Shown: positions 22,802-27,459, counted from the stretch's first letter. The stretch is DNA of 64,000 nt from a virus (IMGVR_UViG_3300002092_001784:160001-224000), one strand, 5' to 3'. Translations and numbers: made by a program. Notes: generated by a model from the sequence alone, not told the origin.

Positions 22802-22857
22802 TTAACAATTTTTTAACATTGAAAGCTTGGATTTTCCAAGCTTTTTTTGTATCTTTA
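22802..22857 (+). promoter_or_regulatory. TTAACA-N5-TTAACA box + Bacteroidota sigma70 promoter
   Basis: TTAACA 22802/22813, CTTG 22826-22829, 20-nt spacer, TATCTTTA 22850-22857. Confidence 0.78.
22822..22848 (+). terminator. intrinsic terminator embedded in promoter
   Basis: AAAGCTTGGA-ttt-TCCAAGCTTT plus T-run. Confidence 0.65.
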
Positions 22858-22899
22858 AGTATTGATTTGAGAGAGATATTAACCACAAAAATAAAAGTT

Positions 22900-23116: not shown

Positions 23117-23172
23117 TTAACAATTTCTTAACATTAAAAATTTGGAAATCGTTAATAAATGTGTTATATTTG
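23117..23172 (+). promoter_or_regulatory. TTAACA-N5-TTAACA box + Bacteroidota sigma70 promoter
   Basis: TTAACA 23117/23128, TTTG 23141-23144, 20-nt spacer, TATATTTG 23165-23172. Confidence 0.8.
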
Positions 23173-23214
23173 AATATCAGTTTGAGAGTTGTTAATCACT
23201 AAAAATTTTGAGTT

Positions 23215-23397
23215 ATGAAAGTTTCAGTTTCCAAAAGAACCAAATCAGTTAAGGGTAAAGAATCTTATGAATCAGTTGCAGCTAAGTTCGGTTTCAAAAA
23301 ACCGGTCTACCAAAAGTACATTATCATCAACGGTGTTCCCCACAAAGCTACGGCTGAAGGTTTAGTTCCATTAACCAAAGTTGTTAAATCCATTTAA
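23215..23397 (+). CDS. small basic protein
   Basis: GAGTTATG start after promoter. Confidence 0.65.
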   Translation: MKVSVSKRTKSVKGKESYESVAAKFGFKKPVYQKYIIINGVPHKATAEGLVPLTKVVKSI

Positions 23398-23632: not shown

Positions 23633-23794
23633 ATGGATAAAGAGAACAAAATTGCGGAAAACCCAAAAACAGGCAATGATTTTATAGCCGATGTTAGTAG
23701 TATGTTAGTTGCTAACGGACTACCTGCTTTTGGTACAAAAGAATTTAATTATATGTGTAGTCAGTTTTTTGGTGGAAACCCTAAAAGCAACTAA
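23633..23794 (+). CDS. cassette-fusion peptide (53 aa) reading across an attC-like right arm
   Basis: MDKENKIAENPKTGNDFIAD-V-SSMLVANG...PKSN*; GAT GTT at the putative crossover. Confidence 0.5.
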   Translation: MDKENKIAENPKTGNDFIADVSSMLVANGLPAFGTKEFNYMCSQFFGGNPKSN

Positions 23795-23805
23795 TTAGTG
23801 CTAAC
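23693..23805. mobile_element. putative gene cassette with self-complementary ends
   Basis: GTTAGTAGTATGTTAGTTGCT (23693-23713) vs reverse complement of AGCAACTAATTAGTGCTAAC (23786-23805). Confidence 0.5.
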
Positions 23806-23829
23806 GATTGTAAATAAAAAAATAAAAAT

Positions 23830-24033
23830 ATGATTAAAGAACTTAAAATTGGGGACAAGGTTAAACTTGAAGGTTATGATGAAGCTTGGATAGGGTGGGT
23901 TACAAATTCTTCATATCAAATTAGTAAGATAAAAAGTAGGTTTGATGAAAACGGTAAAATATCAGTAGGTTGGTTGCTGAAGAATTTGGAAGTGCGTTGG
24001 GTTTCAAAGGAGGAGTGGCACTATAAAAATTAA
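23830..24033 (+). CDS. hypothetical protein (putative cassette gene)
   Basis: Flanked by GCTAACG (23800) and CATATAACG (24039) left-arm motifs. Confidence 0.65.
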   Translation: MIKELKIGDKVKLEGYDEAWIGWVTNSSYQISKIKSRFDENGKISVGWLLKNLEVRWVSKEEWHYKN

Positions 24034-24038
24034 TATTT

Positions 24039-24170
24039 CATATAACGGTCACAGATATATGTAGTTTTTCTTAAATTGAAACATAAAACTTAAATAAAAA
24101 TGGAAGAAGTAAATAAGAACACAGAAGTTGATAACACGGATAAAAAATTACATATATCTGATGTTATATG
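24039..24170. repeat. attC-like imperfect inverted repeat (132 bp)
   Basis: CATATAAC-ggtca-CAGATATATGTAGTTTTT ... AAAAAATTACATATATCTG-at-GTTATATG. Confidence 0.7.
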
Positions 24171-24333
24171 CAGTGTTTGTGGAGGAAAAAATATCCAAAT
24201 CACAGAACACAAAAAGATAACTGGGCCACCCGCAGGAACAAAAAGAAATCCACATAGAAAAACGACTTATGGATATTTTTTTAAGAGATATACTTGTGAA
24301 TGCGGCAGTGTGTGGGAAGAAAAGGAAAGTTAG
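24100..24333 (+). CDS. zinc-ribbon protein whose N-terminus is encoded in the attC-like loop
   Basis: MEEVNKNTEVDNTDKKLHISD-V-ICSVCGG...CECG. Confidence 0.7.
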   Translation: MEEVNKNTEVDNTDKKLHISDVICSVCGGKNIQITEHKKITGPPAGTKRNPHRKTTYGYFFKRYTCECGSVWEEKES

Positions 24334-24357
24334 TGTGATTGGAACATTGTATATAAC
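24163..24357. mobile_element. putative gene cassette with self-complementary ends
   Basis: GTTATATGCAGTGTT (24163-24177) vs AACATTGTATATAAC (24343-24357): 13/15 complementary. Confidence 0.55.
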
Positions 24358-24720: not shown

Positions 24721-24776
24721 TTAACAATTTCTTAACATTAAAAATTTGGAAAGCTAAATTAAAAATAGTACCTTTA
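24721..24776 (+). promoter_or_regulatory. TTAACA-N5-TTAACA box + Bacteroidota sigma70 promoter
   Basis: TTAACA 24721/24732, TTTG 24745-24748, 20-nt spacer, TACCTTTA 24769-24776. Confidence 0.78.
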
Positions 24777-24817
24777 GGTATTGATTTGAGAGAGTTATTA
24801 ATTTTAATTTTGTTATT

Positions 24818-25115: not shown

Positions 25116-26009
25116 ATGAATTTAGGATATGCTTGCATAAATATGACAATGGGTAAAACGGTTACTACCAATCGTTCAATGGTTAAACGTACATTCAATC
25201 TAAGGGGACTGGATTATGTTTCCGAACTTACACTACTCAATGCAAAAGATATTATTAAAATATTGCAATGGAATCTTAAAAATAGTATTAAATTTTTCCG
25301 ATTATCATCTGCCATTGTACCGTGGGGTGATAAGTTAGATTTAACACAACTAAAAGATTACAAACAAATTTCGGATGCACTTAAAAAAGCCGGTGATTTC
25401 GCAACTCAAAACGATATTCGTATCACATCGCACCCCGGTCCGTTTGTAGTGCTTGTTTCACCAAACGAAACAGTTGTTGACAACGCAATCGCAGATTTGG
25501 AAATGCACGGTAAAATATTCGATATGATGGGGTTATCCAAATCAGTTTACAATAAGATTAATATCCATTGTAACGGTGTTTACGGAGATAAGTTATCAGC
25601 AATGGATAGATTCTGCACTAACTACCAAAGGTTATCAGAATCGGTTAAAACACGTCTTACTATTGAGAATGATGATAAAGCATCAATGTATTCTGTGGCA
25701 GACCTTATGTATATCCACAATAAAATAAAAATCCCTATTGTGTTTGATTATCACCATCACCAATTCTGTACCGGTGATTTATCAGAAGAGGCAGCATTAT
25801 CACTTGCTGTTTCAACGTGGCCGGACGGTATCACACCTGTTGTTCACTATTCAGAAAGTAAATCATCACACGAAAACAATACAAAGTTAAAACCACAAGC
25901 ACATTCAGATTATATCAAATCATTACCAAACACCTACGGTAATTCAGTTTCGATTATGGTGGAAGCAAAAGCTAAAGAACTTGCAATATTACCGTTTATA
26001 AAAAAATAA
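25116..26009 (+). CDS. uvsE: UV DNA damage endonuclease (UvsE/UVDE)
   Basis: LGYACIN, FFRLSS, HPG, TIENDD, FDYHHH, HYSES, QAHSD, VEAKAKE. Confidence 0.95.
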   Translation: MNLGYACINMTMGKTVTTNRSMVKRTFNLRGLDYVSELTLLNAKDIIKILQWNLKNSIKFFRLSSAIVPWGDKLDLTQLKDYKQISDALKKAGDFATQNDIRITSHPGPFVVLVSPNETVVDNAIADLEMHGKIFDMMGLSKSVYNKINIHCNGVYGDKLSAMDRFCTNYQRLSESVKTRLTIENDDKASMYSVADLMYIHNKIKIPIVFDYHHHQFCTGDLSEEAALSLAVSTWPDGITPVVHYSESKSSHENNTKLKPQAHSDYIKSLPNTYGNSVSIMVEAKAKELAILPFIKK

Positions 26010-26012
26010 ATT

Positions 26013-26210
26013 ATGAGTAAAAAAATAAAATATAGTGTTGATTGTTATATTCCTGGACAACATCATAGTAATATAATAGAATGTAGAGAAATGGCAATAT
26101 ATGGAGGGGCATATACTTTTTGGGATTGTGAATATGGTGAAACAAATAGACTAATAGCCTCGTACCCGATAATGTTTACGATTATTGAAAATACGGAAAC
26201 CGATGAATAA
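26013..26210 (+). CDS. hypothetical protein
   Basis: ORF track. Confidence 0.6.
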   Translation: MSKKIKYSVDCYIPGQHHSNIIECREMAIYGGAYTFWDCEYGETNRLIASYPIMFTIIENTETDE

Positions 26211-27459
26211 TTTAGATAAAAAATACACCGATTTACTTCAAGATATTTTGGATAACGGTGTTAAAAAAGAAGATAGAACTGGTACTGGTACTATATCAGT
26301 GTTTGGAAGACAAATAAGGCATAAAATGTCTGAAGGATTTCCTTTGCTAACTACCAAAAAGATGTATTTCAAAGGTATTGTAACCGAACTACTATGGTTT
26401 TTGCGTGGAGATACAAATATTGAGTATTTGGTTCATAATGATTGTCACATATGGGATGGGGATGCCTATAAGAGATACGTTAAAGAAAATCAATTTAACT
26501 CAAATGCAAAATGGTTGAAACCTGTACTGTTAGAAAATGGACATTATGGAGCAGATTTATATACAAAAGAAGAATTTATCAACAAAATAAAAACCGATAA
26601 TGAATTTGCTGAGGAATGGGGAGAACTTGGACCAGTGTATGGGAAGCAATGGCGAAAATGGGAAAGGTATGGTCATAGGGGGGTTCAGAATGGAGCATTG
26701 GACTGTGGATTTATTACCCAAGAAGATGTCGATAAAGAAATGTATATAGATCAAATCGCAACCCTAATCAACGACCTTAAAACAAATCCCGATAGCAGAA
26801 GATTGATGGTTAATAGCTGGAACGTAGGTGAAATTGACCAAATGGTTTTACCACCATGTCATTACGGATTTCAATGTTACACTAGAGAGTTGAGTCACAA
26901 AGAAAGGTGTGATTTATTTGGACATAATGATGATCCAAACCGAAAAGACTCTTATTCCAAATGGTTGGATGATAACGGATTTCCGAAAAGAGCTATCTCT
27001 TTAATGTGGAATCAACGTTCAGTAGATACACCATTGGGACTTCCATTCAATATAGCATCTTATGGGTTACTACTTACTATGATTGCCGATGAAGTTAATA
27101 TGGTGACTGATGAAGTTATTGGTAATTTAGGGGATTGTCACATATACCTTAACCAAATCGAAGGTGTTAAAGAACAAATTGGACGTGAATTTACATTAGA
27201 AGAACGAATTGATATGGCATCTAAATGTAACGGTTTTGACCCGTTTGATTTTGGTATTGGAGAACATAGAACTAACGCAATTCAAAAATATCATGACCAT
27301 GAAGTTTGTGATGCTTATGAAGTTCCCCGACGAACAAGAGAACCATATCCATTACCAACCGTTAAAGTTCAAGATGGTATAGAGTGTTCATCTATTAATG
27401 ATGTAATATTATTGGATTATAAATCACATCCAACAATTAAATTTCCTTTAAGCAACTAA
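26203..27459 (+). CDS. thyA: thymidylate synthase (with family-variable insertions)
   Basis: DRTGTGT, ELLWFLRG, GELGPVYGKQWR, SRR, LPPCH, QRSVD, GLPFN; ATG 26203. Confidence 0.95.
   Translation: MNNLDKKYTDLLQDILDNGVKKEDRTGTGTISVFGRQIRHKMSEGFPLLTTKKMYFKGIVTELLWFLRGDTNIEYLVHNDCHIWDGDAYKRYVKENQFNSNAKWLKPVLLENGHYGADLYTKEEFINKIKTDNEFAEEWGELGPVYGKQWRKWERYGHRGVQNGALDCGFITQEDVDKEMYIDQIATLINDLKTNPDSRRLMVNSWNVGEIDQMVLPPCHYGFQCYTRELSHKERCDLFGHNDDPNRKDSYSKWLDDNGFPKRAISLMWNQRSVDTPLGLPFNIASYGLLLTMIADEVNMVTDEVIGNLGDCHIYLNQIEGVKEQIGREFTLEERIDMASKCNGFDPFDFGIGEHRTNAIQKYHDHEVCDAYEVPRRTREPYPLPTVKVQDGIECSSINDVILLDYKSHPTIKFPLSN

Follow-up and report, generated by a model that had tools for sequence, protein, structure and literature searches.

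Among described systems, integrons and CALINs come closest to the locus analysed here. Their sites are folded, with only the AAC/GTT boxes conserved, and consist of two helical boxes, an unpaired spacer and a variable loop, as do the sites reported below; their cassettes, like ours, are promoterless, co-oriented small genes whose 5' box matches their own 3' box. This match was reportedly used by Hall, Brookes and Stokes in 1991 to place the integron crossover at G/TT. A tyrosine recombinase of the Xer/IntI clade is likewise common to integrons and the present family. Besides, Xer-type tyrosine recombinases act on the folded attP of CTX phages, there on a folded single strand, and on pdif modules, which are small modules between inverted sites. 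The CTX/pdif sites are conserved dif-like 28-mers bound by the host XerC/D; the present family differs in that no more than 4-5 bases are fixed and many arrays are accompanied by a short recombinase gene of their own.

Two lines of work have dealt with comparable elements in phages. Screening 10,705 phage genomes with IntegronFinder and HattCI, Qi et al. (2023, PMC9892861) reported 17 CALINs, with hairpins of phages P12002L and PH101 scored as attC. IntI1 recombined five of the six tested phage sites at G/TT, that of PH101 included, while the tested site that was not recombined was P12002L_attC1 (Qi et al. 2023). The latter has the same architecture and loop (TCGTTTTAATG) as the short hairpin of our family and is the closest tested site; PH101_attC1 and attC2 have the TAACG...TTGTTA frame in common with the family. 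The second line concerns the PeSL cassettes of T4-type phages (Arbiol et al. 2010, PMC2839356; Comeau et al. 2014, PMC4122927). There, as here, small promoter/stem-loop modules flank ORFan genes in plastic regions of large lytic phages, and gene swapping via mini-circles was proposed, with no integrase in the phage. Unlike the present sites, however, PeSLs are conserved sequence repeats whose exchange is driven by homology, with crossovers inside the repeat, and they have neither AAC/GTT boxes nor covarying arms nor own-end pairing of the gene units. Our hairpins, in turn, are not conserved promoters with a terminator stem-loop, as their sequences vary and covary. Phage members of the family are so far represented in the literature only by sporadic 'CALIN' matches (Qi et al. 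2023), and our literature search found no paper on arrays, on an own-end rule in phages, on leader-coding sites or on an Xer-like recombinase at the 3' end.

The window, i.e. the whole stretch of 64,000 nucleotides that was analysed, covers bases 160001-224000 of a 266-kb IMG/VR virus record (IMGVR_UViG_3300002092_001784; 32% GC, CheckV 100%). Its source is a freshwater jumbo phage; the matching public DNA runs are freshwater metagenome contigs only, and among the public runs listed there were no RNA datasets containing the stretch. At the locus, a run of small + strand ORFs lies between promoter-like repeat copies at 23117 and 24721, with a UV endonuclease gene and then a thymidylate synthase gene downstream. 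A Pfam search of these small ORFs gave no match, and searching a phage database with the region, and also with a 4.6-kb array, returned only the Cellulophaga phage phi17:1 (through the leader of ORF-A) and one uncultured huge phage. We read positions 23693-24357 as a small array of integron-like gene cassettes that is partly decayed and has no recombinase, with a probability of about 0.7. On this reading, the locus belongs, as an orphan in partial decay, to a large integron-like system of Bacteroidota phages that is essentially undescribed. Its features are:

22802-22873, 23117-23188 and 24721-24792, also 628, 3163, 4180, 7107, 8885 and 14340, + strand: copies of the repeat TTAACAATTTCTTAACATTAAAAATTTGGAAA
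23633..23794, + strand: ORF-A, 53 aa, leader (MDKENK..NDFIADV) plus body of cassette A
23680..23692, + strand: orphan right arm (TTTTATAGCCG followed by AT) of the hairpin formerly before cassette A, left arm lost
23693..23805, + strand: cassette A, 5' box GTTAGTAGTATG.., 3' box ..TTAGTGCTAAC
23806..23829, + strand: hairpin relic, spacer GATTG and an A-rich stretch into the ATG of ORF-B, directly after TAAC
23830-24033, + strand: ORF-B, 67 aa, in a unit that includes the 3' box
23830..24046, + strand: the ORF-B unit, with consensus 3' box AATATTTCATATAAC (24032-24046), which fits nnnATTnnnnnTAAC; 5' box missing
24043..24166, + strand: intact attC-like hairpin (TAAC, spacer GGTCA, left arm, 73-nt loop, right arm, AT, GTTA)
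24052-24069 and 24143-24160, + strand: left and right arms of this hairpin, 17/18 Watson-Crick pairs plus one G:T
24100..24333, + strand: ORF-C, 77 aa, 22-aa leader MEEVNKNTEVDNTDKKLHISDV, then a zinc-ribbon body (CxxC..CxC)
24163..24357, + strand: cassette C, 5' box GTTATATGCAGTGTT (24163-24177), 3' box AACATTGTATATAAC (24343-24357)

The cassette region sits inside one transcription unit between two promoter-like repeats, yet the 32-nt repeats at 23117 and 24721 do not coincide with a cassette boundary. The repeat TTAACAATTTCTTAACATTAAAAATTTGGAAA occurs in 24 copies on the + strand of the 266-kb genome and in none on the - strand; about 16 nt further on comes GTATATTTG, often then TTGAGAG. 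The spacing in GTATATTTG is that of Bacteroidota-type -33 TTTG / -7 TAnnTTTG elements, which supports a Bacteroidota host; with its upstream element TTAACA-N5-TTAACA, the repeat probably represents a class of phage promoters. In some copies a terminator-like stem (AAGCTTGG..CCAAGCTT) is present, and these are therefore PeSL-like, so that the window carries a PeSL-like promoter repeat separately from its cassettes. Just 3' of the cassette region lie a UvdE-type UV endonuclease gene (25116-26009; PF03851, E 5e-67) and a long thymidylate-synthase-like ORF (26185-27459). In 11 of the 39 loci seeded on the leader of ORF-C, a ThyA-like gene was also seen at a distance of a few kb or less from the arrays.

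The observation that drew attention to this locus was that the ends of each segment, after GTT and before AAC, are complementary to each other. For cassette C, the strings were confirmed in place and pair at 13/15 positions by Watson-Crick rules, both mismatches being G(5'):T(3'); in cassette A, 23693-23713 and 23786-23805 give 17 matches with one gap, again as claimed. In the terms of classical integrons, a 5' core complementary to the cassette's own inverse core at the 3' end is hence found twice in the window (13/15 and 17/20). The earlier note had further held that cassette C matches its own end better than the flank of the upstream arm. Here, 24039-24046 (CATATAAC) does pair with 24163-24170 for 8 contiguous bp, as described, but the ungapped flank still reaches 12/15 and the margin within the window is barely 13 versus 12. 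Moreover, GTT..AAC segments are no commoner in the window than in dinucleotide shuffles, an outcome that the earlier note had formally counted against its own reading: two segments of 80-1500 nt with at least 13/15 pairs were observed, against 3.55±2.0 in 40 dinucleotide shuffles of the window, and one segment with 15/15 pairs when wobble is counted, against 0.55. Mutual complementarity of cassette ends is accordingly at chance level inside the window alone and holds family-wide; the pattern is highly significant only once related loci are included.

These related loci are defined by a hairpin that separates the cassettes. In the window, the element at 24043-24166 has the make-up of an attC-type folded site, i.e. 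AAC/GTT boxes, spacer, second helix and variable loop. Its 73-nt loop contains the ATG at 24100 and leader codons, its conserved G:T pair is G24064:T24148, and its folding energy is unremarkable against shuffles (z -1.1). Aligned leader-hairpin sites from other loci share this layout: over ~125 nt, TAAC is followed by a spacer of 3-6 nt starting with G, the left arm, an A-rich loop with an ATG and leader codons, a right arm encoding KKLHIS, then AT or T, and GTTA. Further hairpins of the same design, with very different arms, follow the stop codon of most downstream genes. Scanning with the pattern [TC]AAC[GT], a stem of >=13 pairs and GTT[AG], we found 165 hairpins co-oriented with the genes against 13 on the opposite strand in 376 kb seeded on a leader 21-mer, 340 against 6 in a viral set seeded independently on a different short hairpin, and 124 against 7 in a prokaryote genome set made up mostly of Bacteroidota MAG contigs. 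Shufflon-type inversion between 15-nt repeats was dropped as an explanation because the elements are nearly always co-oriented.

Altogether, there were at least 489 unique hairpins of the form TAACG–stem–loop–stem–TGTTA, with a median stem of 19 pairs and a median loop of 50 nt; 161 of the 489, about a third, contain a start codon. Loops carry A-rich motifs resembling 5'UTRs, and a rolling-circle nick motif (CTTGATA) was not among the enriched loop k-mers. RNAalifold predicted 17 pairs for 54 aligned hairpins, 16 of them with compensatory double changes, and one G:U, flanked by A:U and U:A, was kept in 52 of the 54. Wobbles in the stems are one-sided (262 with G in the left and T in the right arm, 84 the reverse), and the invariant G:T pairs let one strand fold better. 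None of the Rfam families matches the hairpins. The family was found overwhelmingly on phage contigs and Bacteroidota MAG contigs; among cultured phages, P12002L has six family hairpins, on its early-gene strand, and phi17:1 has one. An 11-nt loop, TCGTTTTAATG, is invariant while its closing stems vary (L004, L017, L034, L041, L193, L258 and phi17:1, L001:2780-2812). This loop is found on hairpin-type stems as well as on stems of the GTTA/TAAC type ('empty cassettes') and has >120 matches each in the viral and prokaryote collections, numbers that are lower bounds. A second candidate family hairpin of the source genome lies outside the window on the - strand (139588-139710; TAACGATTGGGGCCGAGCTATC ... 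GATAGGCTCGTCCCAATC .. GTTAGTATG).

Across the family, the pairing of cassette ends is well above chance. Among 28 distinct leader-hairpin cassettes, own ends paired at 12.9/15 positions by Watson-Crick rules and at 14.1 with G:T, compared with 8.65 to the ends of other cassettes and 8.5 to the far flank of the upstream hairpin. For 110 distinct cassettes, each lying between two successive hairpins (length 100-1791 nt, median 305), own ends reached 11.36/15 against 7.92±0.14 for permuted partners (maximum of 2000 permutations, 8.39), and the two flanks of one hairpin scored 8.04. The pairing covers 15 nt, with the consensus GTTAKnnGYAGTnnn ... nnnATTRCnnMTAAC, and 82 of the 110 cassettes have G(5'):T(3') at its position 11; the same YAGT/ATTR motif with its G:T recurs within the hairpin stems. 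Cassettes never abut, a hairpin always lying between them, and 'empty cassettes' of 29 nt also occur, built as GTTAn5-TCGTTTTAATG-n5TAAC. The circular cassette junction was also folded in silico, as had been suggested: with the own 3' box, the hairpin and the own 5' box in a row, all 15 outer pairs close (-14.9 kcal/mol), compared with 8 outer pairs (-12.3 kcal/mol) in the hybrid site found in the genome.

The cassette boundaries became visible in family-by-family inspection, in which the same cassette is followed or preceded by different sequence directly beyond TAAC or GTTA; a histogram of BLAST end points was uninformative owing to the heterogeneity of the cassettes. Both window cassettes recur elsewhere with other neighbours, and homology breaks exactly at the GTTA/TAAC boxes, as predicted. 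One metagenomic locus (L046), with an 81%-identical ORF-A, has an intact hairpin on each side of its cassette A homolog, whose ends pair at 17/20 positions without a gap; where the window keeps only TAAC and GATTG after cassette A, it has an intact hairpin of 19 pairs. Another (L047), with an 84%-identical ORF-C body, has the same 5' box and the 3' box AACATTGCATATAAC, which pair at 14/15 positions plus the canonical G:T. Its upstream hairpin is related to that of the window, the arms differing by a compensated T:A to A:T change, and directly after TAAC, where homology to the window stops, it carries an intact unrelated hairpin.

These comparisons also clarify the state of the array. The orphan right arm noticed near 23680-23700 is real: L046 and phi17:1 keep its partner, CGGCTATGAAG, ~100 nt upstream (11 pairs, two of them G:T), which is absent from the window. 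The supposed orphan left arm at 24351, by contrast with this, turned out to be only the 3' box of cassette C itself, and the sequence after it is unlike any hairpin arm. A partly decayed array is nevertheless a fair description, with one intact hairpin, two relics, three cassette 3' boxes and no integrase. A possible relic of a terminal site after cassette C (AAGATTATATAT, ~27 nt past TAAC) was considered, but the resemblance is too weak to claim. Gene order, which the earlier note had proposed to compare across related contigs, gave a more limited answer, in that strain-level relatives keep the order A-B-C with no cassette turnover seen at this depth. Presence/absence indels were searched for among all fetched loci, with none found and only unrelated Helicobacter matches. 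In the strain-level relatives (L287-L296), gene content does vary beside the promoter repeats, immediately 5' of the cassette region; the varying stretch lies upstream of the homolog of window position 23215, the A-B-C cassettes being fixed. The differences comprise a 98-aa versus a 193-aa ORF and extra ORFs of 66, 69, 77 and 88 aa, and in L290 an additional ORF, of 110 aa, precedes the UvdE gene.

In both window cassettes the start falls inside an ORF, 23693 being codon 21 of ORF-A and 24163 codon 22 of ORF-C. This follows from the fact that about a third of the hairpins carry a start codon and a leader that reads into the cassette body, and is therefore a regular feature of the family that does not refute the cassettes. 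The leader of ORF-C (MEEVNKNTEVDNTDKKLHISDV), encoded by the hairpin loop and right arm, was near-invariant in ~95 metagenomic proteins of 44-106 aa with mutually unrelated bodies, as found by protein searches, and the leader gives way to the body exactly behind the Val of the GTT codon. The zinc-ribbon body of ORF-C, for its part, also occurs behind other leaders. A 21-mer from the end of this leader, i.e. from the right arm, was found exactly in 39 IMG/VR loci on contigs of 4.6 to 324 kb, whose neighbouring genes are not syntenic with the window. ORF-A has 15 metagenomic homologs that cover its full length at 70-83% identity, and gp8 of phi17:1 shares its leader and continues with a different body. 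In L014, L017 and L028 (around 6288 in the last), the leader (..EEDKNLEQNLDNSNEKLHISDV) lies within a longer upstream frame and has no ATG start of its own, and the left arm is missing. Readings of the leader as a T4-like capsid-targeting/protease signal (FIAD/ISDV) or a RiPP leader were dropped, as variants read LSVV or ISVV; covariation of the non-coding left arm with the leader codons also speaks against protein-signal readings.

Some relatives of the array are accompanied by a recombinase. PF00589 was matched in 2 of 5 array-bearing records, both times by a gene of 265-266 aa directly after the last cassette and on the same strand, and tblastn detected homologs in 20 viral loci out of 158, among them 11 of the 39 seeded on the leader, and in 4 of the 120 genome loci. 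In the viral loci, the gene marks the 3' end of the array, with 2-16 co-oriented hairpins upstream and ~0 downstream, and the last cassette ends at a conserved terminal site, TAAC/TAtnATATAT.., ~55-60 nt before the recombinase ATG. The protein combines a SAM-like N-domain (PF13495) with the catalytic domain PF00589 and belongs to the Xer/IntI clade; its best profiles were XerA-like, XerC/D and integron-integrase, all below cut-off, the XerA-like model scoring highest (184-186 bits, cut-off 220). The 266-kb genome of the window has neither a PF00589 match nor a tblastn match to the 265-aa recombinase, which makes the mini-array in the window an orphan, and no tyrosine recombinase was found in the cultured carriers phi17:1 and P12002L either.

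Taken as an integron-like system, the family would consist of folded single-strand sites alternating with cassettes, each site running from TAAC through a short spacer that stays unpaired into a ~19-bp stem, which has an invariant G:T and a variable loop, and on to TGTTA. Each unit would once have been a circle whose outer stem was completed by the unit's own two ends, and a tyrosine recombinase, making its cut next to the AAC/GTT triplet, would have inserted it; own-end pairing is what is expected of such a formerly circular unit. The earlier proposal of a circle with one intact hairpin and a crossover at G/TT is therefore in line with the own-end pairing and the tyrosine recombinase at the array end in relatives, but no circle, excision or presence/absence polymorphism was seen, and its definition of the unit probably needs revision. 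Since the recombinase and terminal site are at the 3' end, the mobile unit is more likely a hairpin together with the next gene on the sense strand. With the enzyme in this position, the integron grammar of site, cassette, attC and cassette can be read from the enzyme only on the complementary strand. Exchange would then take place at TAA/C on the sense strand, which is G/TT on the complementary strand, and the sense strand, on which the wobbles are G:T and not A:C, would be the one that folds, equivalent to the bottom strand of attC. Among homologous cassette configurations, 5 keep the upstream hairpin only, 1 the downstream hairpin only and 10 neither (3, 0 and 4 without the seeded families); the few informative ones agree with hairpin plus following gene as the unit and are weak evidence for it. 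Hairpin families combine with equally many upstream and downstream cassette families, which decides nothing because the uniform attC families of chromosomal integrons show the same. An orphan array such as that in the window may be served by the recombinase of a co-infecting phage or of the host, or by none any more.

A different reading places the function of the stems in RNA, where a helix would close every cistron and every translation-initiation region of polycistronic phage mRNAs and serve in their processing, stability or control of translation, and modularity would arise by homologous recombination within conserved hairpins, as with PeSL. Several observations suit this. All elements are in sense orientation to the genes, the cassette region is inside one transcription unit between promoter-like repeats, and the loops bear A-rich 5'UTR-like motifs and, in 161 of 489 cases, start codons. 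Likewise, the wobbles are G:U-compatible on the sense strand (262 G:T versus 84 T:G) with one G:U invariant, and conservation of G:T on the sense strand fits RNA structure just as well. Yet the RNA reading leaves unexplained why an Xer-like recombinase and a terminal site mark one array end, why boundaries are exact at 4-bp boxes with only 4-5 common bases, and why unrelated genes should pay for a 15-bp helix in their coding ends; the hairpins also match no Rfam family. We hence consider it unlikely, if worth keeping in mind.

Less probable still is that phages simply acquired ordinary bacterial integron cassettes, with true attC sites for IntI, from their hosts, as has been proposed for phage CALINs. 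The AAC/GTT boxes, the two-stem architecture and the own-end logic do resemble attC, IntegronFinder/HattCI flagged members of the family, and IntI1 recombined some phage sites. The enzyme, however, is an Xer-like protein of ~265 aa that scores 146-157 bits with the integron-integrase model TIGR02249 (cut-off 265); its match to this model falls into two stretches, consistent with a missing IntI-specific insert. No IntI with the specific additional domain was found in the 266-kb genome, nor is this domain present in the enzyme of the relatives. Whereas the classical intI-attI-Pc assembly heads its array and cassettes are read away from intI, the relatives' enzyme and terminal site lie 3' on the same strand, with the genes pointing towards the enzyme, and the window has neither of the two. 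Besides, the outer box is 15 bp long, instead of 7 bp, and has an invariant G:T that may stand in for extrahelical bases, and start codons with an N-terminal leader are found in about a third of the sites. The family resides overwhelmingly on phage and Bacteroidota MAG contigs, mostly in phages without any recombinase; the window itself has one intact site and no enzyme.

We regard it as very improbable that the elements are MITE-like palindromes or cargo of a single-strand (HUH) transposase and not substrates of a tyrosine recombinase. That the elements have terminal inverted repeats, occur in huge numbers, are partly coding in frame and have the conserved loop TCGTTTTAATG would be compatible with this, but the arm sequences covary instead of staying conserved, target duplications were not seen, the loops show no enrichment of a rolling-circle nick motif, and beside the arrays a tyrosine recombinase was found but no transposase. 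Finally, chance inverted repeats in AT-rich DNA would match the in-window counts, which equal those of shuffled controls, but are contradicted by the family-wide permutation test and by homologs of both cassettes that keep pairing through substitutions, with homology ending at the boxes, and can practically be set aside.

The integron-like reading of the locus invites a wider picture, to which we give slightly less than even odds: Bacteroidota phages may run their own integron-like system, in which a short Xer-type recombinase moves units of folded site plus gene and the site doubles as translation start and shared N-terminal leader. Hundreds of unrelated small proteins, probably for host takeover or anti-defence, might thereby be exchanged as ready-to-express modules between phages of 16 to >300 kb, with orphan arrays being serviced in trans at co-infection. 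The leader-in-hairpin design is unusual in that >95 unrelated proteins have a common 22-aa N-terminus, owing to the start codon inside the recombination site. TAACG…TGTTA together with own-end pairing provides a simple handle for accessory genes in phage metagenomes, and Cellulophaga phage phi17:1 and Polaribacter phage P12002L are cultured carriers for experiments. If the mechanism is true, it would constitute a route of site-specific gene exchange among lytic phages, jumbo phages included, would help explain the mosaic ORFan regions of phage genomes, and would extend integron-type folded single-strand recombination to another recombinase, array polarity and host class.
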